Source of the DNA: a virus
Taxonomy: Duplodnaviria; Heunggongvirae; Uroviricota; Caudoviricetes
Length of the DNA stretch: 63,014 nt
Virus record (IMG/VR): IMGVR_UViG_3300045988_147415
Reading direction: 5' to 3' (one strand)
Shown: positions 2,775-54,346 of the stretch, piece after piece
How positions within the stretch are numbered: position 1 is the first letter of the stretch
How the letters are laid out: each line of letters starts with the position of its first letter
The notes under the pieces: model-generated
Database searches by the model: none
Told to the model about the DNA's origin: nothing
What the model saw: only the letters and a program-made list of their open reading frames with translations
Translations under genes and position numbers: made by a program

Positions 2775-2808
2775 TGTGTTAGAAAATACATATTAATTAT
2801 CTAACACA
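2775..2808. promoter_or_regulatory. inverted pair of operator-like motifs (TGTGTTAGAAAATACAT / ATTAATTATCTAACACA) upstream of the rdgC-methylase operon
   Basis: Perfect 9-bp inverted repeat TGTGTTAGA...TCTAACACA; same core TTTCTAACA recurs at 12 or more other promoter regions in the window. Confidence 0.45.
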
Positions 2809-2822
2809 AAGGGGTGCATTTT

Positions 2823-3476
2823 CTATCCTTTCTTGAAATCGAAGTTGCCAGCAGTGGCCTGAAAGGTTCCTCCTGCCTTGAAAGCTATGTCTCCGTTAGC
2901 GGTGACAGCAATATTTTCCCCTTTAACATTGATGTTGTTGGCTGATTTGACGTTAACACTCCCTCCTGCATTCACGATTACATCAGCCGGACCAATGATA
3001 TATATCTGCCCGGACTCATTCATGCCAATCCTTGAGCCTGCTGCCGTATTGGCAATTTCATAGCCGCCACCAGCAGTTCGTACTTCAAGAATATTGTTGC
3101 GGTGAATAACGAAGTCTTTCGTTGCTGAGATTTGGGGGCGGGGAGGTGCTCCATCTACTTCCGGCGGCGTCCAGCCGTTGCCTTTGCCAGATGCTTCTGG
3201 TGCAACGTTTGGAATTCCTCCCGGTGCATCCTGAGCGGCACCAACTATCATTGGGCGTCTGGTGTCTATTCGACCGTTAACATCTAAATAAGGAAACTCT
3301 ACCCAGACCAGGTCACCTTTGACTGTAGGTACAAAAGCGTTTCCGATGGGTAACAGGTATTCCGCCCAGGGTAGATCGTCATCAGGAACGCCATTCCAGT
3401 CAGGTAAAACACGGACTTGAGCACGCATAAGCCCTGCCGGGTGCACAGTTCCAACAATTTGCGCTCTACGCTTCAT
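2823..3476 (-). CDS. phage baseplate assembly protein V-like (spike/OB-fold)
   Basis: N-terminal G.V...G..RV.LP..WAEYLLP...GDLVWVEF pattern typical of gpV/Mu gp45-type baseplate spikes; Gly-rich C-terminal repeats. Confidence 0.65.
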   Translation of the reverse strand: MKRRAQIVGTVHPAGLMRAQVRVLPDWNGVPDDDLPWAEYLLPIGNAFVPTVKGDLVWVEFPYLDVNGRIDTRRPMIVGAAQDAPGGIPNVAPEASGKGNGWTPPEVDGAPPRPQISATKDFVIHRNNILEVRTAGGGYEIANTAAGSRIGMNESGQIYIIGPADVIVNAGGSVNVKSANNINVKGENIAVTANGDIAFKAGGTFQATAGNFDFKKG

Positions 3477-4453
3477 TTGTTCGGCACTCCCAATATCATT
3501 CGTGTTGTGTAGCCTACGCGGTCTTCAAAGTGCGCAACATTTTTTACTATCAGCTTACGGGGCATTGATTCATCAATGCGGTTTTCCTGATCATAGCGGT
3601 ATACGATAATCTCTATCACCATCCCCGGTTTTATATCAGGATTGCCTGCGACTTCTATATCCATTTTGGGGACGAGAGACAGCTGCATATTGCGAAGAGT
3701 TTCCATATCAGAGTCGGATATATAACGCACTGGGAGTGAGCTATCGCCATATTCGACGTAGCCATCGGTCATGGAATACCCAACAAAACGATATTGATTC
3801 TTTGCTGTTGTCGCATGTTCCTGTTGGAGTAGGCGCATTTTTGACAAAGTGTATTCTGCTTTAGGGTTATTCCCCTCGTAGGTAAATGATGGCGTTTGCT
3901 TCATCAGATCAGCCAGGGTGTAAAAGTTAAATTCCCCCCGGCATACCCAACATAATGCACCTTTGTCTCGCGCTATCTGCGAGAGCATTTTTGACGGTTT
4001 GTCACCAGCATTCAGATGATATGTAACTGCGCGTTTTAGCACGCTGCTGGTAATTTTAAGCTTGCCGGAATATGCCTTGAATATAGCGTCTGGTGTTTTG
4101 TTGGTATGTAAATTTGTGCGCGGGGAGGGGATCTTAAACCTGCGCACGTCTTCACTGACAGCAATAACGGTAACAACATCACCAGCCAGCATTGCAGACG
4201 TAACAAAGAAATCTGTTTTAAAAGTGCCTGCATTACCGTTTGGATCGCCCATTTCAGCCACCAGCGATGCACCGTATTTGGCTTTCCAGTCATCAATTAC
4301 GGTGCCGGTAGCGTCATGAATTTCCAGTTTTAGCAAAGGGGCTTTGAGGCTGGTTTTTTCTACATATACTGCGGTAAAAATCCAGTCTCGTGGCACTTTG
4401 TTATCGTTAATGAGCACTGACTGTAGAAAATATTGTTGTAACTCCTGGGCCAC
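3473..4453 (-). CDS. putative phage baseplate/tail protein
   Basis: 326-aa ORF translationally coupled directly upstream of the V-like gene; no recognisable catalytic motifs. Confidence 0.45.
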   Translation of the reverse strand: MAQELQQYFLQSVLINDNKVPRDWIFTAVYVEKTSLKAPLLKLEIHDATGTVIDDWKAKYGASLVAEMGDPNGNAGTFKTDFFVTSAMLAGDVVTVIAVSEDVRRFKIPSPRTNLHTNKTPDAIFKAYSGKLKITSSVLKRAVTYHLNAGDKPSKMLSQIARDKGALCWVCRGEFNFYTLADLMKQTPSFTYEGNNPKAEYTLSKMRLLQQEHATTAKNQYRFVGYSMTDGYVEYGDSSLPVRYISDSDMETLRNMQLSLVPKMDIEVAGNPDIKPGMVIEIIVYRYDQENRIDESMPRKLIVKNVAHFEDRVGYTTRMILGVPNK

Positions 4454-4456
4454 TTA

Positions 4457-5224
4457 TCACCCCATAGATATCGAGGTTTCGGTAATAATACGTTTTGCGT
4501 CCAACTCCCATGCTGTGATCACGTCTGCAATCACACTTATCGGCGCTTGTGTGGCATAAATACGCTCTTCTCCAATTGGTGCCGAAACATCCGTAAATCC
4601 GACTTCTTTGGCATCCTGTATCGAGCAAATCAGCGGGACCGGGACACGAACAAGGTGAGTGGTTGCTTCAAATTGTGTACCTGTCATCAGGCGAAGCCGT
4701 GCGCCCAGCGAATTACACATCAGACTCATGGTCGCTTTATCAGTTGCCATTAACGTAACGTCATACGTCAGAATGGCCTGGGTGTATTCCAGTTCTGCTA
4801 AAGGCATTCCGGTATCCGGTTCGCAAAAACTGGCTACTTTTTTGCGGTCAATCTGCTGATCATCGTTGATATAATTGATATCCATAGTGCGTGAGATATT
4901 GACCAGGGGGAGAGCATCCCGGTTAATGTTCTGGTTTTCAGGTTTTCTCCCTTGCCCGGCATTTGCGCGACGAACTGCTTTAAGAAACTCGATCGAATTG
5001 TCGAAACGGGCCACATAGACACGCTCTGCTGGTGGACGATTCAGGAATGACGCAAAGCGTTTTTCTTCCGGCGCGGGGGCCACCAGTAAGATATCAGAAA
5101 AGATATTGCTGATTAGCGTAGCAAACGCGTTATCCACGCTTTCAAAGCCCGTGGTCTGGAATTTTCCTGTGCGTGAGGTTTGCCATTCACCTGTTCGCGC
5201 CAGGAGGGTTTTATTTGAAGTCAT
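4457..5224 (-). CDS. putative phage tail/baseplate protein
   Basis: 255-aa ORF in the same operon, overlapping start/stop with neighbours. Confidence 0.4.
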   Translation of the reverse strand: MTSNKTLLARTGEWQTSRTGKFQTTGFESVDNAFATLISNIFSDILLVAPAPEEKRFASFLNRPPAERVYVARFDNSIEFLKAVRRANAGQGRKPENQNINRDALPLVNISRTMDINYINDDQQIDRKKVASFCEPDTGMPLAELEYTQAILTYDVTLMATDKATMSLMCNSLGARLRLMTGTQFEATTHLVRVPVPLICSIQDAKEVGFTDVSAPIGEERIYATQAPISVIADVITAWELDAKRIITETSISMG

Positions 5225-7940: not shown

Positions 7941-9120
7941 CATACTCCATGAACATTTTTTCAGCTTGTGCTGGTGGTGTTCCAGCCATGACAAGCGCAT
8001 CAATGAACGCCTGCTTCTTCAGTGCGAACTGATCGGCAAGGCGTTGCTGAAGCTCCTTGTTTTTCTGTTTCTCACGTTGCAAGGCCGCTTCTTTTGCTGC
8101 CGCCCGTTTTTTCTGTGCATCTGACAACTTTCTGGCCTTGGTCAATTGGTCACGTAGTTTGTCGATCTTGCCGTTGTCCTTTGCCAGTTTTGTACTTAAA
8201 GCTGCCTGGCGCTTCTGATAGAGCCTCCATTCGCGTTTGGCGGCTTCAACGTTCGTTTTACTGCTACGATTGCGATTAAACTCCTTCTCGTCTTCTTTTG
8301 AGAAGTGTTTAGTTGTACGGCGGCGATCGTCACCAAATGCAATTTGCGTTGCAGCCTTTTGTAGCGCACGAGCAATACTCATTTGCCAACTGGCGGACTG
8401 TAACCGCGTCATTGAGTGGATCACGTGTTTACAGGCGACGCCTTGCAGCTTCGGGTTGCGAACTTTTGGATAGGCGTATTCTTTTGGCGGTGCCAGGGCA
8501 AAGTTACCCGCAGTGGCGATGTAACGATACCAGTATTGATGACGACCACAGTCACAATCGAAAGACACTCGCCCGGCGCACAGTGATTTAGTGATTTTGA
8601 GAGCTGATTTATCGTCTTCTGCGATGTCATCAACCATCTGATCCCATTCTTCAAAGCGTATCCTGACGATATGGTGCTGGTGGACGGATATATCCGATGC
8701 TTCTACGCGGATATTAATCACATTGTGGCGAAGAGATACGGGTGTAGCTCTTTTGATACCAGATCCGTCATCCACGGCGTTATTTGCACGCTTAATATCG
8801 ATTGCCTGGCTGGATGCCACCAGCTGGGCGTATGTGATGCCAGCCGTCTTGCTGTCATATTTTTCGCGCGTTTTACTCCGTAGCTTTTCGAAACCTTTCA
8901 GGTCGTCTCGCGTGAAGAACGTGCCGCCTTTTTTCTTCCCTAACTTGAGAATATCTTCGGCGGATTTGTTCCTCAGTCTACCTGGCGTCAGCGTCCGGTG
9001 AGCTTGTCGGCGCTTACGGGTTTGTTCTTTCCTGATAAGGTCGAATAAACGCGTGAAGTCCTTAGAGGACAGGCCGTCAGTGATATAGCGCCCGTCCTGG
9101 TTTTTCAGGAAATCAGGCAT
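7927..9120 (-). CDS. SWIM zinc-finger protein with Lys/Arg-rich coiled-coil C-terminus
   Basis: FDCDCGRHQYWYRY...GVACKHVIH fits the CxCx(n)CxH SWIM motif; 397 aa. Confidence 0.55.
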   Translation of the reverse strand: MPDFLKNQDGRYITDGLSSKDFTRLFDLIRKEQTRKRRQAHRTLTPGRLRNKSAEDILKLGKKKGGTFFTRDDLKGFEKLRSKTREKYDSKTAGITYAQLVASSQAIDIKRANNAVDDGSGIKRATPVSLRHNVINIRVEASDISVHQHHIVRIRFEEWDQMVDDIAEDDKSALKITKSLCAGRVSFDCDCGRHQYWYRYIATAGNFALAPPKEYAYPKVRNPKLQGVACKHVIHSMTRLQSASWQMSIARALQKAATQIAFGDDRRRTTKHFSKEDEKEFNRNRSSKTNVEAAKREWRLYQKRQAALSTKLAKDNGKIDKLRDQLTKARKLSDAQKKRAAAKEAALQREKQKNKELQQRLADQFALKKQAFIDALVMAGTPPAQAEKMFMEYVKKA

Positions 9121-9442
9121 TTTCTATCTCCGGTTCCGCGCTTGCGTAATCACGGATCTTGTTCCTTAGCCATGCCACATCAGGAAGAGTTAACGTGGTC
9201 CCTGCGGGCATTTCTTCCATTTCTGACTCATGGCCCACCAGCACCCGGAATACCCAGCGCAAATCTGCATTGCCATACGCCCTGTAGGCTGCAAGGTCTG
9301 AACGATATACTTCATCAATCTTTATCGTGTACTGGAAATTATCAGAGTGATACTCCGATACCCGCTTAATCATTTCCTGGTGAAACAGCGCACGAAAAAT
9401 ATCGTCTTCAATGTACCTATCGTCGAGTCTGCTATAGCCCAT
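9113..9442 (-). CDS. hypothetical protein
   Basis: 109-aa ORF overlapping the start of the SWIM gene by 8 nt. Confidence 0.45.
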   Translation of the reverse strand: MGYSRLDDRYIEDDIFRALFHQEMIKRVSEYHSDNFQYTIKIDEVYRSDLAAYRAYGNADLRWVFRVLVGHESEMEEMPAGTTLTLPDVAWLRNKIRDYASAEPEIENA

Positions 9443-9635
9443 AACAAAGCCTCTCAGTCATAACCTGGGGGAAACTGTATGCAGGGTGTGAAATGCGAGA
9501 AACAGACAGGCCACCAGTTCAGGGGGATGGGGTTCATAAATCCCCTCACTGGTGACAAGTGACTTTCATTAATCTTTATGCGGGGGCCAGCTTCATTTGC
9601 TGGCATTAGATTAAAAATCAAACGGAGTAAATGAC

Positions 9636-9770: not shown

Positions 9771-10424
9771 TCAAAGTATCACGGTATCTTCATCAACTTC
9801 TTTCCCAGCCAGTGACTTTGGCTGGGAGGTGCCTGCTTTAACTTTTTCATGCCCAATAATGGACAGGAACGAAGCGAGTATGCCTGTTTTTTGTTCTTTC
9901 TCGACTGTACCGGTCATCTGCTCTACGTAATCCGCACTGGCAACGTTGTGGTATACGGTCGCGTAGCAACACAGGATCATAATAATATGTTCCGGCCTGA
10001 TGTCCTGCCAGTTCACCCGGTAGACTTCTTCTCCGTTACCGTTGTATTCGGTGTCAACGATGGAGTCGGGGATTTCGAAAGCACCTTTGTTATTTTGCGG
10101 CAGGGATAATAGCTTCTGGAGTTTTAGCTCTCTGTATCTTTCCATCCCGACGATGATTGCTGCTCTGCCATCGGCATGACGGGTCTTGAGAGTCACCTGG
10201 CTTGCTCCGGTGCCAGCGGAGATCGTTGGCGTAATTTCGTCTACTAGAACCTTAAATTTGCTTTTCCGCAGGGCTGCTATAGCTGGAGGAATTTTTTGCT
10301 TTTGCTCCAATGCTGACGCGGGAAGGGGTTTTACTTCGTTAATAATGAGAGCACCGTCTTTCAGTATTGCAGTGAGCATTTGAGGCTTGCTGGTGGTCAG
10401 GCTGAATATTGCGATCTTTTCCAT
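9771..10424 (-). CDS. hypothetical protein
   Basis: Start set at internal MEKIAIF with GGAGGA RBS; the longer ORF would read through a terminator hairpin. Confidence 0.5.
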   Translation of the reverse strand: MEKIAIFSLTTSKPQMLTAILKDGALIINEVKPLPASALEQKQKIPPAIAALRKSKFKVLVDEITPTISAGTGASQVTLKTRHADGRAAIIVGMERYRELKLQKLLSLPQNNKGAFEIPDSIVDTEYNGNGEEVYRVNWQDIRPEHIIMILCCYATVYHNVASADYVEQMTGTVEKEQKTGILASFLSIIGHEKVKAGTSQPKSLAGKEVDEDTVIL

Positions 10425-10450
10425 TGTCCTTCCTCCACGGATGACGGATA

Positions 10451-10476
10451 CAAAAAAAGGCCGCACATGGCGGCCT
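10451..10476 (-). terminator. Rho-independent terminator on the minus strand with no annotated gene upstream
   Basis: Hairpin AGGCCGC-ACATG-GCGGCCT followed on the minus strand by a 7-nt U tract. Confidence 0.5.
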
Positions 10477-12470: not shown

Positions 12471-13412
12471 TTAACTAACAATCCAGTCCGTAGCAACAAC
12501 ATCCTCTGGAGCTAAATCAATCGCATGGATTTTCCCATCCCGGATGGTGCGCCAGTGCTTTCGTGATCCACCTTCGGGCCATACCCATACACCTTCAGGC
12601 CAGGATGCTCGACGGCATACGATTGCATACCCTGTTTTAATCCTCTCTCTCGCGGTATGCAACGACAGGTTTGCCTTTGGACTTTCAGGTACAGGATGGT
12701 GAATGGCCTGAAACAGCCCCATTTTGGGGTGATACCAGCGTTTATTACGTGGTTCTGCCTCCGACATCACCTGCTTAAAGGCTTTCCGGAAGGGGGCCAG
12801 GGCCACAATGGAGCGTCGCGCAAGCAAACCATCTGGAGTTAAAAACTCATGCGTATCGGTGGGAATCCGGAAAGCGTTGACCAGGTTGCGACATTTGGCT
12901 TCAGTCAGGCCACATTTCGCCGCCAGCTGGCGGTAGCCAATGTAGCCTTCCGGAATATTGCCTTTCTTGATTTGCTCGACGGTTTCAGCGACTTCGGACA
13001 CTTGTGCCGATACTTCGGCTACCTGGGCATTAACGGCGTTGATCCGGCGTTCATGCTCAAGATGCATTTGCGCCATTTCAGCCAGGATTTCGGCTTTTGA
13101 TTTTAACTGTACCCGGGCATTCTCCAGTTCGCGCCAGCGGTCCACCAGCCGGGCGGTAAATTCGGGAGAAAGCTGTGCGACGACAATGATACTGTCACGC
13201 TTGCCTTGTTCGCCTTCAAAGATGTAAGCCTTGGAAAATCGACGAGGGCCAACTGATTGTTTATTTTCAATTTCCTCAATTTGAGGAAATTGAATGACAC
13301 CACCTTTAGTTAATACTTCAATGGTACGCTTCACATTATCATGACGCTTACCTACCAGTTCCGCGATCTCAATACTGGTCATTGTCGCTTTTTGAGAGAT
13401 GGACAGATTCAT
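12471..13412 (-). CDS. ant: phage antirepressor (N-terminal Rha-type domain, C-terminal Ant domain), immI-like copy 1
   Basis: TSIEIAELVGKRHDNVKR Rha-type N-terminus; 313 aa; paralog of the 51842..52549 gene; preceded by an icd-like ORF as in P1 immI. Confidence 0.75.
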   Translation of the reverse strand: MNLSISQKATMTSIEIAELVGKRHDNVKRTIEVLTKGGVIQFPQIEEIENKQSVGPRRFSKAYIFEGEQGKRDSIIVVAQLSPEFTARLVDRWRELENARVQLKSKAEILAEMAQMHLEHERRINAVNAQVAEVSAQVSEVAETVEQIKKGNIPEGYIGYRQLAAKCGLTEAKCRNLVNAFRIPTDTHEFLTPDGLLARRSIVALAPFRKAFKQVMSEAEPRNKRWYHPKMGLFQAIHHPVPESPKANLSLHTARERIKTGYAIVCRRASWPEGVWVWPEGGSRKHWRTIRDGKIHAIDLAPEDVVATDWIVS

Positions 13413-13627: not shown

Positions 13628-13689
13628 AATGGCAGCCTCCTTTTGCTAATTTAAGGAGCTACCGCGTGAGGTTCCAATCTCAATGGCGG

Positions 13690-13790
13690 TAGCACTGACT
13701 GGGTTGGAACTACCGGCGCAAAAGGGAACCGGCCTGCCTTTCGGCAGCCCAGCCAGCACTACCATTGATCTCTGAGCTAAACGCTACGTA
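13690..13790 (-). ncRNA. candidate c4-like antisense regulatory RNA (tRNA-like features), immI copy 1
   Basis: Minus-strand transcript carries GUUCCAAC complementary to GAUUGGAACC sites both upstream and about 42 nt before the icd start; a UAGCUCAG...GGUAG D-arm-like segment suggests RNase P-type processing; boundaries approximate. Confidence 0.3.
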
Positions 13791-13811: not shown

Positions 13812-13835
13812 CAAAAAAAGACGCTTTCGGCGTCT
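13812..13835 (-). terminator. Rho-independent terminator upstream of the c4-like region
   Basis: Hairpin AGACGC-TTTCG-GCGTCT followed on the minus strand by UUUUUU. Confidence 0.5.
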
Positions 13836-13940
13836 GTGTCGCCTTTTGCATTATCCGGGGTTCCAATCCCGGCACCCGTTTTTCTAAGGTGCCGTAGAAA
13901 TATACCCCACGATAATGCCAGGGCGCAACAGTCAGTATTT

Positions 13941-14426: not shown

Positions 14427-14450
14427 AATGTTAGAAAACTAATTTATCAA
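14427..14450 (-). promoter_or_regulatory. operator-like motif (TTGATAAATTAGTTTTCTAACATTT on minus strand)
   Basis: Instance of the recurrent TTTCTAACA motif, overlapping the 3' end of the ref-like gene. Confidence 0.35.
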
Positions 14451-15017
14451 TTCAATCGCCATCTGATACAACGCCATTTCATCGGCATTGTGCCGTATGA
14501 AATCTGCTTTTCCGCCTATTTTTCCATCAGCATGAACAGGGACCAGCCAGGGATATTGTTCTCGGACCTCGGCTGGCGCTGCGTACTGGTGGTGCCATTT
14601 ACACAAAGGGAGGACATATTTATGCGCGTTCTCTGCCGTTCTCCCGAAGATATGGTGCAGGGATACTACTGGGCTATGTTGCCCGTGAATATGGCAGGCA
14701 ATGCAGGGGAGAGTACCGATAGCGGTCTGTATCCGGCGTTCATCGGCTGTGAGTGATCTGCCCTTCAGGCCGCGTGACGTGCGTGTTTTTTTGGGCGGAG
14801 CGGATACAGCTTTATCTTTTCTCCGCTGTTCATATTGCTTTGCTTTTTCAATTTTCTTTTGCCGATATTCAGGCGATGCGGCTTTTTCTCTCGCTCGCTG
14901 CTGCTGGCGTTGAGCTTGTTGAAGGCGCTTTGCCCTTTGTTCCTCTCGCCAGGCCGGGTCAGCCAATTTTTGCATGGCTTTTTGTCTCTGTTTCTCCCAA
15001 TAACTCTGTTTCTGCAT
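14439..15017 (-). CDS. ref: Ref-like HNH-family nuclease with a highly basic disordered N-terminus
   Basis: About 75 aa Lys/Arg/Gln-rich N-terminus then a Cys/His-rich core (CIACHIHG...HHIFGR...LPLCKWHH); size and architecture fit P1 Ref; operator motif in its promoter. Confidence 0.5.
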   Translation of the reverse strand: MQKQSYWEKQRQKAMQKLADPAWREEQRAKRLQQAQRQQQRAREKAASPEYRQKKIEKAKQYEQRRKDKAVSAPPKKTRTSRGLKGRSLTADERRIQTAIGTLPCIACHIHGQHSPVVSLHHIFGRTAENAHKYVLPLCKWHHQYAAPAEVREQYPWLVPVHADGKIGGKADFIRHNADEMALYQMAIELIN

Positions 15018-17100: not shown

Positions 17101-17108
17101 GGCTCCGC

Positions 17109-22837: not shown

Positions 22838-22838
22838 T

Positions 22839-30924: not shown

Positions 30925-30946
30925 GTGTTAGAAATTTAATTTACGA
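30925..30946 (-). promoter_or_regulatory. operator-like motif (CGTAAATTAAATTTCTAACACA on minus strand)
   Basis: Recurrent motif at the cre 3' end, upstream of 30523..30867. Confidence 0.4.
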
Positions 30947-31969
30947 ATCCATAAGGCGGCTATTAGCCCCCACAGACACGCCGCCACGGCGAAGATACCG
31001 CATAAGTGTTTCCGGTTTCTTCCAGGTTCCTTCCTGCATGATCTCCACCATAGACACCTGCTTTTCAGCCATATCAATAGCGGCCCCGACGCGTGCACTA
31101 TGCCCGGTCCACGTCCGGTATCTTCCTTTGTTTGGCGTAGCATCTCTTTTATTCAGCAACACCCAGGCGTCGCTGAATATTTTCTCCATTGCAGGTGCAG
31201 TAAGGGGCGTTGTCGTGATCCTGGCCTTATTGCTACGGTGTATCGGCGGGAACAGCACTGCGTCAGGATGTTCGCGAAGCCCGGAAACATCCAGCCAGTC
31301 ATTCAGCACAGCGGTAGTGCGACGGGAAAGCACCTTATCAAGCCCGGCGGCGGTCGTTATTGTCTTCGTGTGTGAAATATGTAGCGTGACAGTGTCACCT
31401 GTTTGGTCCAGATCTCCTACACGAATACGCGAGATTTCCGACATACGCATCAGCGTATTGTATGCAACAAAGAGAAAAGCCCGGTTGCGCAGGTCCACCA
31501 GCCGTTCTGACCTGGACAACAGGACGTCGAGCAGTTTCAGATCGTCCCACCGCAGCGGTATAGCCTGGCCTGTTCGTTCGCCTTTTTCAGTTGCCGCTTC
31601 GCGCCGGATGCGCCGCATAGCCAGAGAAACACTTTTATCATCCGAAAGTGGCGCAAGGCCACAATGCGAAAGCAGCATGTTCAGCATGGCGTAGTGCTTA
31701 TCAATGGTGGTCGAAGCCAGATCGGCATCATGCAGCTGAAGAAAATACTCGCGGGCCATTTCTGGTGAGATCGGAAACCAGGCAAGCTGGCGAGCGTGAC
31801 ACCAGCGCGCCCAGGAATGAAACACCAACCGGAGGTCGCGCAGAGTATTCGGCGCATAAGCCCCCTGGTCATTCATGAACCGCATAAAGTTTTCTGCGGC
31901 TTCCTGGTACTCTTTGCCAATGTTGCGCAGAAAACCACCGGAACTGCCAGAGATAATTAATTCACTCAT
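30941..31969 (-). CDS. cre: Cre-like tyrosine recombinase
   Basis: Colinear similarity to P1 Cre (SWARWC, VSLAMRRIRRE, RNRAFLFVAYNTLMRMSEISRIRVGD, HTKT, SGHSARVGAAIDMA, EIMQEGTW); roughly 40 percent identity by eye. Confidence 0.85.
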   Translation of the reverse strand: MSELIISGSSGGFLRNIGKEYQEAAENFMRFMNDQGAYAPNTLRDLRLVFHSWARWCHARQLAWFPISPEMAREYFLQLHDADLASTTIDKHYAMLNMLLSHCGLAPLSDDKSVSLAMRRIRREAATEKGERTGQAIPLRWDDLKLLDVLLSRSERLVDLRNRAFLFVAYNTLMRMSEISRIRVGDLDQTGDTVTLHISHTKTITTAAGLDKVLSRRTTAVLNDWLDVSGLREHPDAVLFPPIHRSNKARITTTPLTAPAMEKIFSDAWVLLNKRDATPNKGRYRTWTGHSARVGAAIDMAEKQVSMVEIMQEGTWKKPETLMRYLRRGGVSVGANSRLMDS

Positions 31970-32363: not shown

Positions 32364-33401
32364 ATGAGTAAGAAGTCGATCGAGAAAGAGTACAAACGGT
32401 TCCTGCAAACCGCTGAACGGTGGAAAGAGCTGGTGGTCGCAAACTCTGTTTTCCATGATACCAGTTATGCTGGCGAGGAATTCCGCCATGTTGCATTAAC
32501 GCATGACCAAAACATATTAGAAGAAGCTGAAAAATGTCTTGCTGAATGGAAAGCCTTCGTTGACATGTGCCGCGATGCCGACGGCAAAGCGTCGAACATT
32601 GTTGAGTCTGTATATTCTCCGATCCCATTCATCATTGAGGACACCAATCAAAGCACGCATGTCGTTGTGCAAAGCGCTACAACAACACGTACATTTACAC
32701 GTGAACAATTGCTAAAAAAATACGACAAAATCATAAAGAAAAGCCTGAAAAACAGGGTTTTTTCTCAAATTGTAGGTGCTCTTGAAGAAGAACAGCGCTT
32801 CTTTGAAGCTGAGCCTGAAGGCGAGATCTACCGGGCGCGTAAAGAGGCATATACAGATGTTGTGCTGACAACAAACATCGAAGGCAGCAATGCCCTTTCT
32901 CGCTTTAGAGTTGGCGCACATGGCGCATTGGTTTTCGCAAGACTACCGAAGACAACGATCCCCGTTGTCAATAATGTTGGTGAACGCCGGAGCATTACAA
33001 TTTATTCTGGCGTCGAATCGGTACCTTGCAGCCTTCTCGGCGATTTTAACTTATATCGTGTTCGTGACCTGGAAAAACACCAGCCAAGCTACGTTGCGAA
33101 GTCGTACATCTTAAGGAACATCGATATTCGCAATGAAAGCCTTAAGCAGAAATCCGCTAAGATGCTGGAGGATGCCGATCCGGCTATTCGCCATATCATT
33201 GAGCGTAAGATACGTACATCACGTGAAGCAATGGCAAGGCTGGATAAAATGGATCTGGAATTGTTAGACGTAATGATGGCCTCTGGAGACGACCTGACCG
33301 GCATTAAACTGAATGAAGCTCGTAAAAAATACGGCAAAGCAATCGAAGAACGTTACGGATACACATTCCCCCAAACGCAGTACGCCGCGAAGCTCTGGTA
33401 A
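32364..33401 (+). CDS. hypothetical protein; candidate C1-type master repressor by position
   Basis: 345-aa ORF divergent from cre across the lox site and convergent with pacB, the topology of c1 in P1; no sequence-level confirmation. Confidence 0.35.
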   Translation: MSKKSIEKEYKRFLQTAERWKELVVANSVFHDTSYAGEEFRHVALTHDQNILEEAEKCLAEWKAFVDMCRDADGKASNIVESVYSPIPFIIEDTNQSTHVVVQSATTTRTFTREQLLKKYDKIIKKSLKNRVFSQIVGALEEEQRFFEAEPEGEIYRARKEAYTDVVLTTNIEGSNALSRFRVGAHGALVFARLPKTTIPVVNNVGERRSITIYSGVESVPCSLLGDFNLYRVRDLEKHQPSYVAKSYILRNIDIRNESLKQKSAKMLEDADPAIRHIIERKIRTSREAMARLDKMDLELLDVMMASGDDLTGIKLNEARKKYGKAIEERYGYTFPQTQYAAKLW

Positions 33402-34937: not shown

Positions 34938-36301
34938 TAATCATCCTCCGGCGGTTCTATCGCGATATCATCATCTCCGGCGTCATACCCTGCATCAGAT
35001 GCATCATAATCACCGTAAATTTCAGCCGTTGCCGAAGGGTCAATATCCAGCTCTTCGTCGTTGGCCTCGAATTCTCCAGCTTTACGCTCGCCATTGCGGT
35101 CGTAATCTCCGCACCCCAATTCTTCAACAATGGTTGCCACATCCGCCCGGCGCTCTGCCAGCCATTGCGGATGGTTAGCCTGAAGCGTTGCAAACTCCCT
35201 TGCCTCTTTGTCCAGCTGTTCATCATCAACATCATTGACGTCAGAAACAGGTGGTTCGAGAAGAGTGATAGCTTTCGCCGCGCGCGCCGCGAGGATAGCC
35301 GGGACGCTGACCCCCTGGCGCTCGATGTATTCAGCAACACCGATATCATCCAGTTCCTCGCGCTCACGCATACGTATAGCGGCGGCGATAACTCTGGCTG
35401 CGCGTGCGTCAGCGCCAATGCGATATTCAATCTCTTTGCCACGCTGTTCGGCCTGTAGGCGTGCTAATTCGAGTTTTTCTCTGGCCTCAGCCTCTTTGAA
35501 TGCTTGCTGGCGAGCGCTCTGACGAAGCTTTTCATCCCCCTGTCGCAGCTTTTGTTCGGACTGATATATAGCTGCCAACCTACTGATAAAATCATTCATG
35601 TAGTAGGCCGCGTCACTGATTAGACCGAGAAGGCGCTGCCCAGGGTGCATTCCTTCTGGCTCTTTATCGCCCAAGGCGTCTATTTCCGCCTGTAGACGTT
35701 CGGCCTCCTGATCAACAATGCTTTGATACTGAAGTGCGCGCTCTTGCGCCATTTGAATTGCTAACCGCAGGTGTTCTTCTGCGCCGTTCTTCATCATATC
35801 GCGAGCCACATTCGTAGTGGGCAATGTGGCACGCTGCACAGCACCGCCAGGGATCATTGCTGAAGATCCCTCAATTTTTGGGGCGCTTTTATCTTCTTCG
35901 GGGATCATTTTCGCCATTTTTTCGCGCAATGATCTCCTGACAGATTCTTTTATCTCATTGTTATTATTGGTATTACTTTCATGATCCGAAGTTTTCTTTC
36001 TTGGCATACTTCGGAAAGAACCTGCACCCTGCGAATTGTCAATTTCTGTAAATTTTGTTTTTTCTGCACCCTCTTCCAGCTTTTTTGTTGCTCTTCCCGC
36101 CCGTTTTTTTTCAGGTGATTTGGTGCTTTTTTTTGTTGTCTTTACCTGCGACCGCACCTCATTTTTTTTCATATTGAGATGCTTTCTGGCTGTATTGAAG
36201 CTAAGGCCATGCTCCTCACAGTATTCCTTTACAGTGATCCCTTTTTCTTCACGCAACGCTATAAAGCGGGCGCGGTGCTCCTCCCAATTAACCAGACTCA
36301 T
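34937..36301 (-). CDS. pacA: terminase small subunit (PacA-like) with N-terminal HTH
   Basis: N-terminal HTH (ITVKEYCEEHGLSFNTARKHL); overlaps the pacB start; contains an internal GATC-hexamer cluster. Confidence 0.6.
   Translation of the reverse strand: MSLVNWEEHRARFIALREEKGITVKEYCEEHGLSFNTARKHLNMKKNEVRSQVKTTKKSTKSPEKKRAGRATKKLEEGAEKTKFTEIDNSQGAGSFRSMPRKKTSDHESNTNNNNEIKESVRRSLREKMAKMIPEEDKSAPKIEGSSAMIPGGAVQRATLPTTNVARDMMKNGAEEHLRLAIQMAQERALQYQSIVDQEAERLQAEIDALGDKEPEGMHPGQRLLGLISDAAYYMNDFISRLAAIYQSEQKLRQGDEKLRQSARQQAFKEAEAREKLELARLQAEQRGKEIEYRIGADARAARVIAAAIRMREREELDDIGVAEYIERQGVSVPAILAARAAKAITLLEPPVSDVNDVDDEQLDKEAREFATLQANHPQWLAERRADVATIVEELGCGDYDRNGERKAGEFEANDEELDIDPSATAEIYGDYDASDAGYDAGDDDIAIEPPEDD
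35850..35990. other. candidate pac packaging site: cluster of GATC hexamers inside pacA
   Basis: Five GATC sites within about 135 bp (near 35852, 35865, 35903, 35931, 35983) plus TGATCA near 35710, against about 0.5 expected by chance. Confidence 0.45.
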
Positions 36302-36690
36302 AAAGCAACACCACGCTTTTTAACGGCGGCATTCCACAGCTTATTCGCCATGTCCACCAGCTCTCGTTGCTCTTTTCGCGCCTGTTCGACTGATTTCCTG
36401 CTACAGTTTTTAACCAGTAAGCTACCGTATTCAGGCGTGCGCCCGCGCACCTTGAACTGATATCCGTTCAGACCATGTAGCCAGTATTTTCGTGGATACA
36501 CACGATCATCCAGCTCACAGATTGCCCTGCTTGAACGAACAAAATGACGAATGATGTTAGTTACACTTACTCGTGAAACATGGAGATGAGGGTATTTTTC
36601 TTTGGCGAGAGTGGTAATTTCAGTGACTGTCAGATAGCAGTCAGCCCTGATCATGATATCCGCAATTTCTGCGCTGCTGATTTGTTCCAT
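36298..36690 (-). CDS. hypothetical protein; candidate late-promoter activator (Lpa-like) by position
   Basis: 130-aa basic protein immediately upstream of and coupled to pacA; operator motif in its promoter. Confidence 0.3.
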   Translation of the reverse strand: MEQISSAEIADIMIRADCYLTVTEITTLAKEKYPHLHVSRVSVTNIIRHFVRSSRAICELDDRVYPRKYWLHGLNGYQFKVRGRTPEYGSLLVKNCSRKSVEQARKEQRELVDMANKLWNAAVKKRGVAL

Positions 36691-39625: not shown

Positions 39626-39630
39626 TAAAT

Positions 39631-40940: not shown

Positions 40941-42149
40941 TTATTTCCCATAAAGATCTTCTACACCCCCATTCTTCTTATCCCATTCGTTCGCCCATAC
41001 CCGGCAAGCGTCAATGATTTCCTGACGACGATCTCCTTGCATGAACGGGATGCTTTCATGGAAACAGCTTGGAATGCAGGCCACACTGAATACAGTATCA
41101 AACTCCGTCTGCTTGATTGCCTCCAGCGTCTCCGGACGCATTTTTAATTCATCGATTGGCGCATCCTTAGAGTCCATAATCCGGCGATATAAGCGCGGAA
41201 AATCCGTCTCCAGGTACGCCATAATTTTATCTGCGAGACATTCGTCTATGTCGGTATTCCAGTCCTTTTCGAAGCCCGGCAGGCGATAGTAAAGCGGCGT
41301 TCCCCATACCGATGGGATCACATCCATCGTTAACAGGCGATTGGTTCTGATTTGTTGATGGTAATTAGCCGTCAGCAGTGCTTCGCCACGCTGCCCAGTT
41401 TCCGCAACCAGGCCGTGTGGATACTCATGGATGTAGGCAATGGCATCCCTTCCATCATACATAAGTGGAAATGTCTCTGGTCTTTGTCCCATGCCACAAG
41501 CACGGTTCAGATCGTGACCAAGCTGTGAGCACTCTCGCTTTAATGTTTCGATAATGCTCTGCGCTGTAGCCAACTTTTTACGCAGTGTGACGCCTTCGCC
41601 TTGATAATCAATGCATTGCTGATTGAGCTTGGTTAAACGCTCTTTTAGTTCCCGGCGCTCTCTTTTCAGCGTGCGGTTATCCTTCTCCGCAACATCCAGC
41701 CGCTTTGTCAGGCTGGGCGGATAGTCTTTTTTGTAACGGTTCAAATCGGCTTCGGCAGATTTACGCAGTGTATTTGCCTGTTCAAGACGCGCTTCCAGAT
41801 TGCCGATCTCATTACGCATATTCGCGGCAAATTGATTAACTGCATCACCCAGGCTTTCAACTGTCGCTGATACGCCTGTGACTTGTGAAAAACGGATCAA
41901 GCCATCATTAACGGCTTGTTGGTATTCCTCAAACTGATCCACCAGCTTATTGTAATCAACTGCCCCATCATCAAGCAGCTTGTTGATTTCCGCCACCAGG
42001 TTATCTGTAGTGGCAATGACACTCTCGTGCAGTCGCTTTGACAGGTCATCACCCGGATTCCGTTTCTGTATAAGAGCGATTTGTGTGCGCAGCGTTTCAA
42101 TTGCTGTCGAGATAATTTCCAGATTAGAAGTATCAGTGTGTTGACTCAT
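40941..42149 (-). CDS. hypothetical protein (N-terminal coiled-coil, C-terminal globular domain)
   Basis: Start set at internal ATG (MSQHTD) because the ORF-track start is GTG; operator motif directly upstream. Confidence 0.5.
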   Translation of the reverse strand: MSQHTDTSNLEIISTAIETLRTQIALIQKRNPGDDLSKRLHESVIATTDNLVAEINKLLDDGAVDYNKLVDQFEEYQQAVNDGLIRFSQVTGVSATVESLGDAVNQFAANMRNEIGNLEARLEQANTLRKSAEADLNRYKKDYPPSLTKRLDVAEKDNRTLKRERRELKERLTKLNQQCIDYQGEGVTLRKKLATAQSIIETLKRECSQLGHDLNRACGMGQRPETFPLMYDGRDAIAYIHEYPHGLVAETGQRGEALLTANYHQQIRTNRLLTMDVIPSVWGTPLYYRLPGFEKDWNTDIDECLADKIMAYLETDFPRLYRRIMDSKDAPIDELKMRPETLEAIKQTEFDTVFSVACIPSCFHESIPFMQGDRRQEIIDACRVWANEWDKKNGGVEDLYGK

Positions 42150-42166
42150 TGCTGTTCCCGTCACCT

Positions 42167-42193
42167 TGTTAAATTAGTTTTCTAACATATTTT
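42167..42193 (+). promoter_or_regulatory. operator-like motif CCTTGTTAAATTAGTTTTCTAACATAT
   Basis: Near-identical to the reverse complement of the site at 54320-54346; about 20 bp upstream of the 40941..42149 start. Confidence 0.45.
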
Positions 42194-42262: not shown

Positions 42263-42577
42263 TTACTGTGTTGCAGCCTGATAAATAAGATACGCGATAA
42301 ATACAGGTACGATGGCCCATTGCAGCAATGAAAGTAGCCTCATTACTGTTATTGGGGTAACTCCATTCACGTATTGCTTCTCTGACATTTTCCCTAACCA
42401 ACTAACCGACAACAGTGCCGAGTTTTCCCCCAATTCCAGCTCTCTGAGAGCTTCACGGATTAACGGCGCTGTCACAGCCTTAACCGGCGTGCTCAACGTG
42501 ATACTCCGCGTCCTCCCCGCATCGTCAGCGAACGCCAGACTCACATAATATTTTTTGCTCAATGTACAAACTCCCAA
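42263..42577 (-). CDS. hypothetical protein with C-terminal transmembrane helix
   Basis: 104 aa; hydrophobic C-terminus (WAIVPVFIAYLIY); followed by a terminator. Confidence 0.4.
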   Translation of the reverse strand: MGVCTLSKKYYVSLAFADDAGRTRSITLSTPVKAVTAPLIREALRELELGENSALLSVSWLGKMSEKQYVNGVTPITVMRLLSLLQWAIVPVFIAYLIYQAATQ

Positions 42578-43265: not shown

Positions 43266-43404
43266 CTACGTTAGATTTGTAAAACAAGAGAGATACTACT
43301 CAAGGATGGGCTATATGCAACAGGTCGGATTTGCTTTTAGAGTAAAGAGTGACCTTAATCAACAAGGAGGGTAAATCGCATGGCATTTACCCAACCTGTT
43401 ATTT

Positions 43405-47100: not shown

Positions 47101-50100
47101 TCAACATCATCTGCCACTTTACCGCCAGCTACTTTTGGCAAGGCATCAGCAATAGCTTTTACCTGGTCTGCAAGCTCAACGGGGAACTGGAATGTAATTG
47201 CACTGGCATACAGATCCGGGTCTATAGCAACCTTGTCCATGTCACGGATGATGGAGAAGATGAAATCATCCGGTTTGTCGTTAGTGATATGCCCGTTTTC
47301 ATCGACTGTCAGCTCATCATTGCGACTTAACTCCTGAGCACGCTTACGAAGCTCTTCATAAGCAGTCTCCTGCTCCCCTGTCATCGGGATCTGCAAGGTG
47401 TTCTCGATGATGTCGGGAATTTTAACCGTCGCTCCGACATCTGCAGCAGTCTTCAGAGTGGTCCAACGATGGAAAATACCACGCAGGCCGTCAAGGTTCT
47501 GGAAGCCCACCAGCCCCTGCTTCTCTTCCACTTCCCCGGAAATTTTCTGGACCTGAACTGTGGCTGTTTTGCCAAACACACGAACGAAATCATCAGGCGT
47601 AATGATGCCCATGCGCATCCACTCTTCCTGCGGAATGACAGTAGACAGCATGTTGAAGGCATCAATCGGACTGTTCACCAGCGGAGTTGCCGTCAGCATG
47701 ACTACACCACGCCCGTTGTTGCGTTTCATCATGTACGCAGCTTTTACAGCCATGTCGCGGGCCATCTTGGATACTGCCGGGTTAGGCAAATATGCCAGTT
47801 GTCCCGCTTCACGCCCGGCATTAAAGGAGTTGCGGTAGTTATGCCCCTCGTCGGCAATCACGCTATCGAAGTTCATATCCTCAAAGTACGGGATATTCTG
47901 CTTCTTCGTTGTACCGGTATTCGCGGCCTGATCCTTAATCTTGTTCTTCTTCTGCGCATCACGGTGTTTACCGGACGCCAGGTCAAGACGCCCCATTTCC
48001 ACAGCATTAAAGACAGCTTGCTGTGAGTTCTCCTCGATGGTTTTTTCTCGTAGCGGGATAGACGCGAATTGTTCTTTTGTCATGATGACCGTTCGCCAAT
48101 TTGACGACGGGATCATGTTCATACGCTGAACGATAACGGCGCTGGCGGACTCTTTCACAACATTTCTGGTAAGAGGCTGCCCGTTACTGTCGAGGCGTGG
48201 TTCGCCATTTTCATCAAGCACCGGCGAGGTCAGAATATTTCCGCTGTCATCACGAACTTCATCCAAACCGATAAACATCATATTGGCGAAGGCATCAGCA
48301 CTGTAGAAACTCTGTGCCTCGTGATACCAGTTCTGATAAACCGCCTTCGGAACAACAATACACGTGCGTTTAGTGCGACCTGTTTCGAAGTTATACGCCT
48401 CAAGCGCAAGCGCGGTCGTGGTTTTACCCAGCCCGGTACCAAATCCCATGATGCCGCGCCCATCTTCTGACAAGCGCCGAACTTCTTCATTCTGATAAGT
48501 AAGAGGAATGCGCTTTCCACTAAGCCCTTCCAGGCCAAGCGGTGCGTCAGAATGCGTGAACGGAATGAAACCATTGAATGCGTCGTTATACTCGCGGGCT
48601 ATCTGATCAGCCTGCGGGTGAGTGCGTAACCAGTCGTTAAAACTAACTTCCAGTTGAGCAATTTTATCCAGGTACTCGTTAGCGTTCTGCCCACGCGGTT
48701 TAACACCGTTCAGGTAGTTTTCTAACTGGTTCAGGAAGCCGTCTTTATTGTTGGCCTTCTTGAACTCATTCCCGTTTTTGCCGTTTACGGTTCGTAGCTG
48801 ATAGCCGGTAAATACCCCGTCCTTACCTTCGTAATCGTCCGGAGATACCAGAATGCCATCGACGACCTTCAGATCAGGTTCAGTGTATTTAAACTCGTCA
48901 TAGCCCTGCTCTGCCAGGAACTCTTTTATCAAGCGGCGATCCAGCCAGCGGGCATTCAGATTAACGGTGACTTTATTTAGTGGCGTGAAAATACGTTTCT
49001 CTTCGATTTTCGCCAACTGACGCTCAAAGTTCGCTTTCTGCTCACCTGTTGACGCATCACGCCAGCCCATCAGCAATGCTGTTTTGGTTGCAATATCGCC
49101 GCTGGTGGCGCGGTCCATCGGCAGCAGGCAGCCATACCCATCAATAGCGATATCATCAAATTTCGCCAGGTATTCAAGGGCCGCGTCGTCGTCCTCTGGC
49201 AGTTCACCAGCAAACGCCTCACGAAAGTCTCCCAGCGTTATAGGATTAAGGGCTACATCACTGAAAAGATGTGCTATCACTTGTTCAGGACGTGTAAAGT
49301 CAATACCGGCAGCACCATCCGTTACATCAAGTCGCCCTGCCAGAAGGTCAGAAGTGGAACCATCCTGTTTCACATTGCCAGTGAACGTCATCCAGTTTTT
49401 AGCGCCAGCTTCAGCAAGCCCATTCAGCTTAATGGCGTGCGGTGGTCCATACTTCGCAACTTCTGCTGCCGCCAGGCGGGATGCATCTGCCAGTTTGTCA
49501 TCAACGTTCACACCCAGGTTACGCAAATCAAGTGCCTTGTTGATCAACTGACCTATCAGCGCACCGCGCATAACGCGCTCCCTGTCTTTTTCTCGCTGCT
49601 TGCCAGCAAAGCGAATCATTGCTGCCACTTCATCACTGACAACCGATGGATAGTCGGACGCGATCGCCGATATCTGGTCCCATGACAAAGCCAGAATCCC
49701 GTTTGTTGACTGGAACGCGATCTGCAGATCGCCAAACGTCGAAACACCATATCGACTTACATCAAGCGCGGAGGATTTGGTTGTCGTGTCCTTAACCCAT
49801 TTCAGACCATCAAACTCATGCCAGATACCGCCTACAAGGCGTTTATCGCCCACTTTCGCACCCTGCCATGCCTGAGTAGTTACGCCGAGCAAATCCCAAT
49901 TGATGCGACTATCAAAGCGACGAGATAGCGCGGTTTTCATCGACTCATTGGATACACGACCGTCTTTTTTCACCACCAGGGTATTGCGGAAGCTGGTACG
50001 TTCCATGTCGCCGTAAACAAATCGCTTCCCTTCGGTTGTAAACCATTTTCCTTTGAGGAAGGTATCCCAAAGGACGTTTGCCGATTTGAGTGTTGAATCA

Positions 50101-52773: not shown

Positions 52774-52829
52774 AGTTACGGCCTCACTAACAGGTTTAAC
52801 AACCTGCTACCCGCTGTCAAACAGGTGGC

Positions 52830-52920
52830 AGGACGTGACAGGGTTGACAGACTGGCGTTAGTGAAACCAGCAGGCCGAAGCCTCCCCATCACGCCCCACC
52901 ATAATTCGGGCGTAACGCGG
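52830..52920 (-). ncRNA. candidate c4-like antisense regulatory RNA, immI copy 2
   Basis: CUGUCAAC element complementary to UUGACAGC sites located about 41 nt before the icd start and again about 170 nt upstream; same geometry as copy 1 with a different sequence; boundaries approximate. Confidence 0.3.
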
Positions 52921-53116
52921 TTTACGGACACAAAAATACCGCAATATCGGAAATCTGCGGTTGTCCGCACTAACATTCAGGCTGTCAAACCTGGTCGCAG
53001 AATTTGCTACGACGGCATGAATATAAGCCTGAAAACATGGAAGATCAACTAAAAATTTCAGCAATGGATGACTTCAGTCGATGATGCAGATCATACATTC
53101 CGATTTAGAAACAGCA

Positions 53117-53135
53117 AATTAATTTTCTAACACAG
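53117..53135 (+). promoter_or_regulatory. operator-like motif AAATTAATTTTCTAACACA upstream of the immI copy 2 operon
   Basis: Recurrent motif about 340 bp upstream of the icd start. Confidence 0.4.
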
Positions 53136-53186
53136 ATTATCGAGCGAGCATTTTCCGATCATTGGGATGTTTTGTAGACACACAGG

Positions 53187-54149
53187 TCATCCCCTAAAGC
53201 CCGCCGGGATTGACCAATCCTCACGGTCAAATTCAGACCGATAGCCACGCTGTTTCATCAGGTCAAAGGCTTCACCAATGGTTGCACACCCCTGGGAGCC
53301 AGAATAATCCATTGAGAAATCCAGGGCACTGGATTGTTTAGGCTTATTCACTGCGGTAGCGGCACTACGTATCCATGCAAATTTTTTTGCCAGCTTTTCA
53401 GCGGTACGATACAGAGCCTGCCGTTTTGCGTGCCCCTCGTCTGAACGACGCTTTGCAGCTCTCGCTTTTGCCGCCGCCAGGCAGTGGTTGGTATGTTCTT
53501 CCCTGATTACTGGTTTTTTATCCAGCCCCCCATTATCCGCTTGAGAACTATCTTCTGGTGAAGCCTTTGGCTGAACCGCGCATGATCTTTCTCTTCTTTT
53601 GGCTATAGAGTGACTCTTATTTTCTATTGGCTGTCCATTTTGAACATGGGGGGACTTGTTCAATTTGAACAGGGGGTTCCCAGTTTCAAAAAAATAACGA
53701 ACCTTTGAAATCAACTGCTTAACCAGTTTTGTGGCGTTGGCAAATTTGATGCCCTGCTTACCCCCTATCTCCATTGCTACATGAATGAAGTGGAGAAATT
53801 GTGTCGTAAACCGATATACGTTACACACCTGGGCATTGTTATTCGCTACCTGATGTTGCTTAACAAGCATTCCGCACTTCGTCGCTTCAGCAAATGCCCG
53901 GCGCACAGTAGAAATACTGCGTCCTGTAATCTCGGACATATCAGCATATGAGCGACGGATCATGTATTCATCGGTAGACCCTGCCAGGTTGGCGAACTCG
54001 GCAATAATGGCGCTATGTGAAGGGGAAAGAAGACCGCTATGACGAGCAAAAAAACTCAACTGATGACCTTTGATTTTTTTGTGGTATTCAGTGTTGTTTT
54101 TATACTCAGAAGTGTTGAAAGTTACTGAAACTGAATTTAAAATACTCAC
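53187..54149 (-). CDS. HTH-containing protein; possible replication/regulatory protein (RepL-like position)
   Basis: Internal HTH (ADMSEITGRSISTVRRAFAEATKCGMLV); own promoter after a terminator. Confidence 0.35.
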   Translation of the reverse strand: MSILNSVSVTFNTSEYKNNTEYHKKIKGHQLSFFARHSGLLSPSHSAIIAEFANLAGSTDEYMIRRSYADMSEITGRSISTVRRAFAEATKCGMLVKQHQVANNNAQVCNVYRFTTQFLHFIHVAMEIGGKQGIKFANATKLVKQLISKVRYFFETGNPLFKLNKSPHVQNGQPIENKSHSIAKRRERSCAVQPKASPEDSSQADNGGLDKKPVIREEHTNHCLAAAKARAAKRRSDEGHAKRQALYRTAEKLAKKFAWIRSAATAVNKPKQSSALDFSMDYSGSQGCATIGEAFDLMKQRGYRSEFDREDWSIPAGFRG

Positions 54150-54212
54150 CAGATAGTTCCGTGAAAAAATCTATCTACCGTATAAATCTATGGCAGTGGA
54201 TTTATACACCCA

Positions 54213-54236
54213 AAAAGCCGCTTCTCAGCGGCTTTT
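54213..54236. terminator. bidirectional Rho-independent terminator
   Basis: AAGCCGC-TTCTCA-GCGGCTT with flanking A/T runs. Confidence 0.5.
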
Positions 54237-54319
54237 GCTTTTTTGGCAGTCGCTACCGGAGCAGTGACCGCGATCCTACTCGATCCCATCCACCAGGATC
54301 AACAGTGTATATAAATACA

Positions 54320-54346
54320 CTATGTTAGAAATTTAACTTAACAAGG
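54320..54346 (-). promoter_or_regulatory. operator-like motif (CCTTGTTAAGTTAAATTTCTAACATAG on minus strand) next to palindrome GTGTATATAAATACAC
   Basis: Near-identical to the site at 42167-42193; adjacent perfect 6-4-6 palindrome at about 54305-54320. Confidence 0.45.

Follow-up and report, generated by a model that had tools for sequence, protein, structure and literature searches.

What reads a short asymmetric motif that recurs in front of many operons in the virus record IMGVR_UViG_3300045988_147415? This record from IMG/VR (Caudoviricetes) comprises 63,014 nucleotides (nt), the whole of which is referred to here as the window, and it is a D6-like plasmid prophage of the P1 family. The region around its c1 gene is 99–99.6% identical to Escherichia phage D6 (AY753669, MF356679), and apart from a few mosaic replacements the remainder shows ~95–98% identity. 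An initial annotation had listed 13 places that hold the motif and had read them as the operator set of the repressor encoded at 32364..33401. All 13 were confirmed, and from sequence comparison the motif very probably serves as operator for the D6-type C1 prophage repressor, so that the sites would make up a heteroimmune D6-type C1 operator regulon. This assignment is supported by homology of the C1 protein, by synteny with the P1 operator map, by mutually exclusive sets of motifs in the two phages, and by a change of motif in relatives with a diverged C1.

The motif is over-represented, asymmetric, and intergenic

The core TTTCTAACA is present in 12 exact copies in the 63 kb, against 0.57 expected, and this count was reached in none of 100 dinucleotide shuffles. 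The 19-mer AAATTAGTTTTCTAACAYA, with up to three mismatches, occurs 11 times against 0.04 expected. In an unbiased count, TGTTAGAAA is the most frequent 9-mer of the window once words derived from Chi are set aside, the same rank that C1-operator words hold in P1. A weight matrix of 20 positions was trained on 14 sites and scored leave-one-out, which returned 12 strong sites at 17–30 bits (24–31 bits with the full matrix), two core-only sites at ~11 bits (40765 and 43213), and weak inverted partners at 19638, 36781, and 43267. First-order Markov random sequences contained 3.7 matches per window at 8 bits or more, with a top score of 20.9 over 50 trials; the strong sites are clear of chance because they score 24–31 bits against this random maximum.

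The informative stretch reads A-(A/T)-TTA-(G/A)-(T/A)-TTTCTAACA-(C/T)-A and is non-palindromic, its left arm (TTAR) mirroring in degenerate form the invariant right arm (CTAAC). Written on the strand that can be compared with the P1 operator, the motif becomes TRTGTTAGAAAAnTAATTT, an invariant 10-bp box, TGTTAGAAAA, with a looser A/T-rich arm. There are 12 operator loci in the window and 13 in D6. Single sites are found at six loci (14427, 30924, 32334, 40921, 42170, and 54321) and inverted pairs at 2775–2808, 19638–19671, and 36767–36800, with weaker pairs at 15066 and 53103. The two 20-mers of a pair lie on opposite strands, offset by 14 nt, in the arrangement TGTTAGAAA-N12-TTTCTAACA with cores 21 bp apart; the inverted pair that had been proposed at 2775–2808 is genuine, and such pairs are more often complete in relatives. 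The sites at 42167 and 54320, described earlier as near-identical 27-mers, agree at 22 of 25 positions after a 2-nt shift but are out of register as originally written. Of two weaker copies suggested upstream of c1, the one near 32251 is a single base off the core and is perfect in two metagenomic relatives (L011 and L012, below), whereas the one near 32036 falls below 8 bits.

An intergenic or promoter-proximal placement had also been claimed, and in D6 14 of the 15 strong sites are indeed intergenic in a genome of which genes cover 89.8% (binomial P = 1.8e-13). The motif has no fixed orientation towards the downstream gene: about five sites are in the same sense, about five in the opposite sense, and the others bivalent. 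The distance from motif to start codon ranges from 11 to ~210 nt. Candidate sigma-70 promoters overlap or adjoin most sites, at low confidence: these calls are low-stringency consensus matches from a relaxed scan, and a strict scan gave almost none.

The sites follow the P1 C1 operator map with a different word

For P1, the reference was AF234172, whose annotation includes twenty C1 operators of the monovalent kind, given as protein_bind features, together with eleven late promoters. Comparison of the two site lists bore out the suggestion that the motif precedes operons controlled by C1 in P1. Sites in the window occupy the P1 positions Odmt, Oref, Omat/Oc4, Oc4, OrepL, Olpa, Oc1, Oban, OpmgR, and O26/Oppp, and probably Ossb and OpmgT. 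As in the ImmC system of P1 and P7 (Op2, Op21, Op51, Op53, Op68, Op72, Op82-88, Op94, and Op99), about a dozen operator loci are spread round a plasmid prophage of ~90 kb; ten or more are dispersed and mostly intergenic and promoter-proximal, they precede the same functions (c1, lpa, repL, c4/ant, ref, dmt, the ban/tRNA operon, and pmg genes), and they lie in either orientation relative to the promoter. The form of the operator is also of the P1 type, an asymmetric site used singly and in overlapping inverted pairs. In the bivalent P1 operators Op72ab and Op99ab, two asymmetric 17-mers point towards each other and have their A/T-rich ends in common, which is the layout of the window pairs.

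The recognition sequence, in contrast, is TGTTAGAAAAnTAATTT in the D6 type and ATTGCTCTAATAAATTT in P1, with no cross-matches in either genome. P1, which has a similar G+C content and the same lifestyle, contains no exact D6-type core and no site above 14 bits, and the P1 operator core TGC[TA]CTAAT is found 18 times in P1 and not once in the window. The consensus ATTGCTCTAATAAATTT, which marks the common immunity specificity of P1 and P7, is not followed by the window operators. Different words at the same regulatory places in two related phages are the pattern of heteroimmune repressor-operator pairs. The system thus belongs with the P1 C1/operator kind and represents a further immunity type with a different specificity, and recognition of a sequence other than ATTGCTCTAATAAATTT should make the element heteroimmune to both P1 and P7. 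Unlike P1, the window has two c4/icd/antirepressor modules, each with an operator, and its c1 operator lies 11 nt from the ATG with no leader the size of coi/imcAB between operator and gene.

C1 homology and covariation of the motif in relatives

By pairwise alignment the C1 of the window is a distant homologue of P1 C1 (283 amino acids), with 21% identity over ~240 residues from the first residues onward (BLASTP, E 2e-8). It differs from P1 C1 in an extra helical C-terminal region of ~90 residues. Thirteen residues are invariant in an alignment of 12 D6-type, Citrobacter-type, and P1 C1 sequences. Database relatives of the window protein carry PF27008 (Phage_P7_repressor_C1), and the local Pfam copy matched neither the window C1 nor P1 C1 itself.

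By tblastn this C1 is present in 149 plasmid records, at ~100, 90, 80, 70, and 30% identity. Three plasmids (L006–L008; C1 90, 80, and 70% identical) and two metagenomic contigs (L011 and L012; 51 and 44%) were compared as closer relatives, and L009 (NZ_CP042508, Leclercia) and L010 (NZ_CP099368, Citrobacter), with C1 at ~30%, as distant ones. In the closer relatives TTTCTAACA, with the invariant TTTTCTAACA, is kept at orthologous places while the flanks drift. When c1 leaders were aligned across C1 identities of 100 to 44%, the ten columns TGTTAGAAAA were the sole invariant block.

The two distant prophages have the same gene order round recombinase-c1-pacBA. The D6 word is essentially absent from them, and (A/T)TCTAAGG(C)TTT stands in the same places where the window has TTTCTAACA(Y)A: before rdgC/hrdC, before ref (twice), at the recombinase 3' end, and before c1. 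In L010 this word occurs 15 times against 3.1 expected. It is apparently a third class of operator specificity, again with TCTAA, so that three C1 classes would go with three words, all containing that element: GCTCTAAT in P1, TTCTAACA in D6, and TTCTAAGG in the Citrobacter type. Such covariation of motif and C1 is consistent with C1 as the reader. A Pantoea plasmid, pPSP-26e (C1 28%), showed no clear repeated motif and two TCTAAGA copies only.

Proposed action of C1 and alternative readings

We infer that C1 binds these sites and represses by binding, with one molecule on each asymmetric site and two at bivalent ones. C1 would be bound, in a lysogen, at about a dozen scattered loci, some single and asymmetric, others paired as inverted half-sites, and occupancy would block RNA polymerase at the overlapping or flanking sigma-70 promoters. 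The functions silenced in this way would be c1 itself (autoregulation), lpa as the activator of late genes, repL and with it lytic replication, the two c4/icd/antirepressor modules, ref, and a number of operons: the methylase operon hrdC-dmt, the tRNA/tci operon, and several early ones.

Several observations weigh against this reading or limit it. The core-only sites 40765 and 43213 do not outscore the top match among 50 random sequences, their support being conservation, and at sites 30924 and 36767 the relaxed scan found no promoter at its threshold. The loose likeness to the P1 operator that had been noted is a weak one, limited to a (T)CTAA element present in both and an arm rich in A/T, and the homologous strand and register between the two types are uncertain. 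The pmgR-pmgS site and the pmgM sites are not at exact P1 positions. C1 is the presumed binder by homology and synteny, and the distant relatives have diverged throughout, so that covariation cannot single out C1 among the phage proteins.

These points leave room for a different binder, which could be a small DNA-binding protein of an early operon, an Xre/HigA-type protein, or a host factor, with the sites forming an early regulon and not an immunity operator set. The element does encode other predicted DNA-binding proteins, binding by C1 is deduced from comparison, and the motif changes only where all proteins have diverged. Set against this, the sites match the annotated P1 C1 operator positions down to oddities such as the overlap with the ref stop codon and the placement ~200 nt upstream of c4; because they follow that map, any other binder would have to mimic it. 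The conserved site directly upstream of c1, the sole invariant block there, also speaks for C1, as does the lack of the motif, despite a common host and many common genes, in P1 with its different C1. A binder other than C1 is thus judged unlikely.

A positive role, as a phage-specific early promoter box or an Lpa activator site, would fit the fact that some stretches of the motif could act as promoter hexamers (TAACAT as -10 at 14427 and 54321, and TTGATT/TTGTTA just upstream in several sites). The motif is read as an operator and not as a promoter box because its orientation is mixed and late operons lack it. The variable distance to the start codon also argues against a promoter element, the upstream regions without the motif include those of gp26, gp7, lydA, prt, darB, and mat, and one motif site precedes lpa itself. 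P1 late promoters moreover use a different box, AAGTGACTT at -22, of which the window has a separate copy at 9556. This role is accordingly considered very improbable. Least credible of all is that the repeats have no function, being a chance A/T-rich word or what is left of a short dispersed repeat, a reading that the conservation effectively refutes. In its favour, the motif is rich in A/T, as intergenic DNA is relative to coding DNA. Against it, no shuffle reached the observed counts, P1 lacks copies, and the orthologous cores do not vary among relatives whose diverged flanks argue against recent recombinants.

Recognition by C1 as a prophage repressor therefore remains the favoured reading, and with it the operator sequence and probable regulon of the D6 immunity type are defined. 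Phage-plasmids of the D6 type occur widely in E. coli, Salmonella, and Shigella. At least three motif classes track C1 divergence, which provides a simple sequence test for immunity groups of P1-like phage-plasmids. The regulon also offers orthogonal repressor/operator pairs and targets for induction studies. As an analogue of the P1 system the regulon is biologically expected, and more useful than surprising; wider interest lies only in the possible Tus-like fold of the C1 family. Full-text searches found the operator word in no accessible paper; the D6 genome paper was outside their reach, and an earlier description there is possible.

Other functions and boxes were considered in the course of the analysis. 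For the late-promoter reading, P1 late promoters were extracted and the window was scanned, and the reading was rejected on the late-operon leaders. The P1-like late box, GTGACAAGTGACTTTC at 9556–9567 (+), lies between gp26 (9113..9442, -) and mat (9771..10466, -) and matches AAGTGACTT; few other clear copies of this type of box are present in the window, and the box of D6-type late promoters may have diverged. Some late operons are preceded by a box containing CCCCC, which was dropped, the word being too frequent throughout the window and D6. On sequence alone no consistent consensus for integration host factor was seen, and an iteron or centromere was set aside, the sites being dispersed at promoters and not clustered at rep or par genes.

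A possible Tus-like fold of C1

An AlphaFold model of the window C1, of moderate confidence, was built from an alignment of eight sequences (mean predicted local distance difference test score 79, predicted template modelling (TM) score 0.54). Searched with Foldseek against the PDB, its sole significant matches were four E. coli Tus-Ter DNA structures (E 4e-6 to 3e-4, probability 1.0), with TM-scores of only 0.26–0.29. No sequence homology to Tus was detected when a profile of 12 C1 sequences was run against all PDB sequences at E up to 10, nor by phmmer, and a fold search of a viral structure library with the C1 model gave nothing significant. Of the basic residues that are invariant in the family, R41, R157, and R159 are placed by the prediction in beta-strands and H186 just ahead of a further strand, which would suit a Tus-like mode in which strands read the DNA groove.

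TerB is AATAAGTATGTTGTAACTAAAGT (PMC4499146). It shares TATGTT...CTAA with the D6-type operator TATGTTAGAAAACTAATTT, which may be chance, and the two proteins differ in function, Tus arresting replication forks and C1 repressing transcription. We offer tentatively, as a lead that is rather doubtful at present, that the C1 repressors of the P1/D6 family are Tus-fold monomers that read long asymmetric sites through beta-strands and are related to Tus in evolution or in architecture, with the operator classes (GCTCTAAT, TTTCTAACA, and TTCTAAGG) as specificity variants around TCTAA. Among accessible full texts no paper linking C1 and Tus was found. Binding of P1 C1 to an asymmetric operator without a recognisable helix-turn-helix is a long-known oddity, and work by Schuster and Heinzel reportedly found that P1 C1 binds its site as a monomer. 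A Tus fold, if true, would explain this oddity, and bound C1 would possibly be a polar roadblock to transcription or replication.

Proposed operator loci of the window

The coordinates of the sites, of c1, and of related features are given in Table 1.

Table 1. Operator and operator-like sites and associated features (window coordinates unless a relative is named)
Coordinates	Strand	Feature	Position	P1 counterpart
2775–2794, 2789–2808	-, +	Bivalent operator TGTGTTAGAAAATACATATTAATTATCTAACACA = TGTTAGAAA-N12-TATCTAACA, two inverted 20-mers	Upstream of hrdC	Odmt (Op68)
14427–14446	-	Monovalent operator	Overlaps last 8 nt of ref (14439..15017, -)	Omat by position; functionally closer to Oc4
15078–15097	+	Operator	Divergent region between ref (start 15017, -) and orf88 early operon (+)	Oref (1962–1978)
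19638–19657 (weak), 19652–19671 (strong)	-, +	Operator pair	Between ppp and pdcB	Probably OpmgT (Op88)
30924–30943	-	Monovalent operator	Overlaps stop of dre (30941..31969, -)	Probably Ossb (Op21)
32245–32264	+	Degenerate distal site TTTCTAAAA; core copy 32254–32262, one mismatch	Upstream of c1	
32334–32353	-	Operator, likely autoregulatory	11–30 nt upstream of c1 start codon	Oc1 (Op99)
32364–33401	+	c1, 345-residue D6-type prophage repressor, proposed binding protein		
36767–36786 (strong), 36781–36800 (weak)	-, +	Operator pair, strong core TTTCTAATA	77–110 nt upstream of lpa (36298..36690, -)	Olpa (Op94; 89904–89920)
38221–39707	-	Five tRNA genes (Met-CAT, Ser, Thr, Tyr, Arg; ARAGORN and Rfam)		
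40765–40784	+	Core-only operator-like site	Leader of tRNA/tci operon	Obanab (Op72), with 40921
40921–40940	+	Operator	Adjoins pmgS stop codon	Obanab (Op72), with 40765
42170–42189	+	Operator	Between pmgR (42263..42577, -) and pmgS (40941..42164, -)	Closest to OpmgRa/b (Op86)
43213–43286	+	Core-only site 43213–43232 and weak site 43267–43286	5' end of pmgM; pmgM start	Roughly O26/Oppp
53115–53134	+	Operator with weak inverted partner TTTAGAAA at 53103	Upstream of C4 RNA	Oc4 (Op51; 48140–48156)
54321–54340	-	Operator	172 nt upstream of repL (53187..54149, -)	OrepL (Op53)
5778, 13546, 13617, 18377, 19887, 26036, 26216, 29273, 39801		TCTAAGG-word sites	L010	
8084, 9479, 19213, 24326, 27783		TCTAAGG-word sites	L009	

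Each window site was found at the matching coordinate of D6 (MF356679/NC_050154; pac-c1-dre segment AY753669). The pair at 2775–2808 sits 12–45 nt upstream of hrdC (start 2763, -), the first gene of a hrdC/C-methylase/dmt operon, and corresponds to D6 64114–64147, between D6_65 (hrdC) and D6_66. At 15078 the inverted partner is weak (GTTAGA at 15066), and a full second half-site is present in L007 and L008. The pair at 19638–19671 (D6 80707–80740, between D6_97 and D6_98) heads the pdcB...pmgU...hot/humD operon and has a TTGATT-17-TATTTT promoter; its probable P1 counterpart heads pmgT-U-V...hot. The site listed originally at 30925 and ascribed to the cre/repressor region is real, although it does not stand in front of cre: it overlaps the dre 3' end, upstream of the next operon (orf117/orf116/dut/orf114/isaA), with a D6 equivalent at 89946–89965 and a syntenic site in all relatives. 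Its probable P1 counterpart lies at the head of ssb-isaA.

Upstream of c1, the degenerate site at 32245 is replaced by the full TTTTCTAACA in L011 and L012. The P1 operator corresponding to the pair before lpa lies 71–87 nt before P1 lpa. The operator at 40921 is just upstream of a TTGATT-17-TAGAAT promoter that reads (-) into the tRNA genes and tciA/B, and site 40765 in the leader of this operon is conserved in every relative examined; the P1 counterpart is itself followed by tRNAs and tciABC. An Rfam search of the 1.2-kb leader between the 40921 operator and the tRNAs for a dicF-like RNA, as in P1, gave nothing credible. At 43213 the core is invariant in relatives and the flanks differ, and a TTTACA-16-TATTAT promoter lies at 43283–43256. 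The operator at 54321 overlaps a TTGCCT-16-TAACAT promoter.

Two C4 antisense RNA genes were found with Rfam, at 52821–52906 (-) and 13682–13769 (-), and therefore two immI-like c4/icd/antirepressor modules are present, each preceded by one operator. In the first, the operator at 53115 lies ~210 nt upstream of the C4 RNA, with a C4 target element (c4-a1b1, 52974–53026, -) between them and icd and ant after; P1 Oc4 is likewise 187 nt upstream of P1 c4 (48343). This is the composition of an ImmI-type module, in which an operator is followed by C4 RNA and a1/b1 targets upstream of icd-ant. In the second, the core of the operator at 14427 is overlapped by a TTGAAT-16-TAACAT promoter, and downstream of it on the minus strand follow isrK (13814–13892), the second C4 RNA, icd, and an antirepressor gene (12471..13412). 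P1 Omat (2628–2645) overlaps the end of ref in the same manner, covering the last 10 nt of P1 ref (2077..2637). The a1/b1 target element is recognisable in the first module, and the match to the isrK family of small RNAs (-) stands just upstream in the second.

Further features of the element and its relatives

The rox site centre, which is coordinate 1 of D6, is at 32138/32139 of the window. Most genes in the D6 record are named after their P1 counterparts, and no operator or protein-binding features are annotated in it. An extra strong operator, AATTTTGGTTTTCTAACACA, is present in D6 (MF356679, 54200–54219) outside the window, between the diverging major capsid gene and orf52, and it has no obvious counterpart in P1. 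According to PMC6799933, which cites the D6 genome paper, Lxc is absent from D6-like elements. Window segments 16463–18133, 21028–21959, 22380–25392, and 26904–28123, which belong to the early-gene region, are without a nucleotide match in D6. Some of the early region resembles genes of lambdoid/Stx phages and phiV10 (ea22-like, DUF551, ASCH), which indicates mosaic exchange of accessory early genes.

The tRNA genes of the window share their orientation with tciA/B and with the operator and promoter upstream at 40878–40940. The D6 record, in contrast, holds three tRNAs only, placed on the plus strand, whereas the window has five on the minus strand; this looks like either an annotation slip or a real difference. 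In L012 (Logan SRR12267734 contig), the 9-mer AGTGTGAAG/CTTCACACT occurs six times in 15.9 kb. Chi (GCTGGTGG) is present in 44 copies in the window against 1.7 expected, a count reached in none of 100 shuffles, and words derived from it also head the 9-mer counts of P1 and the relatives examined.

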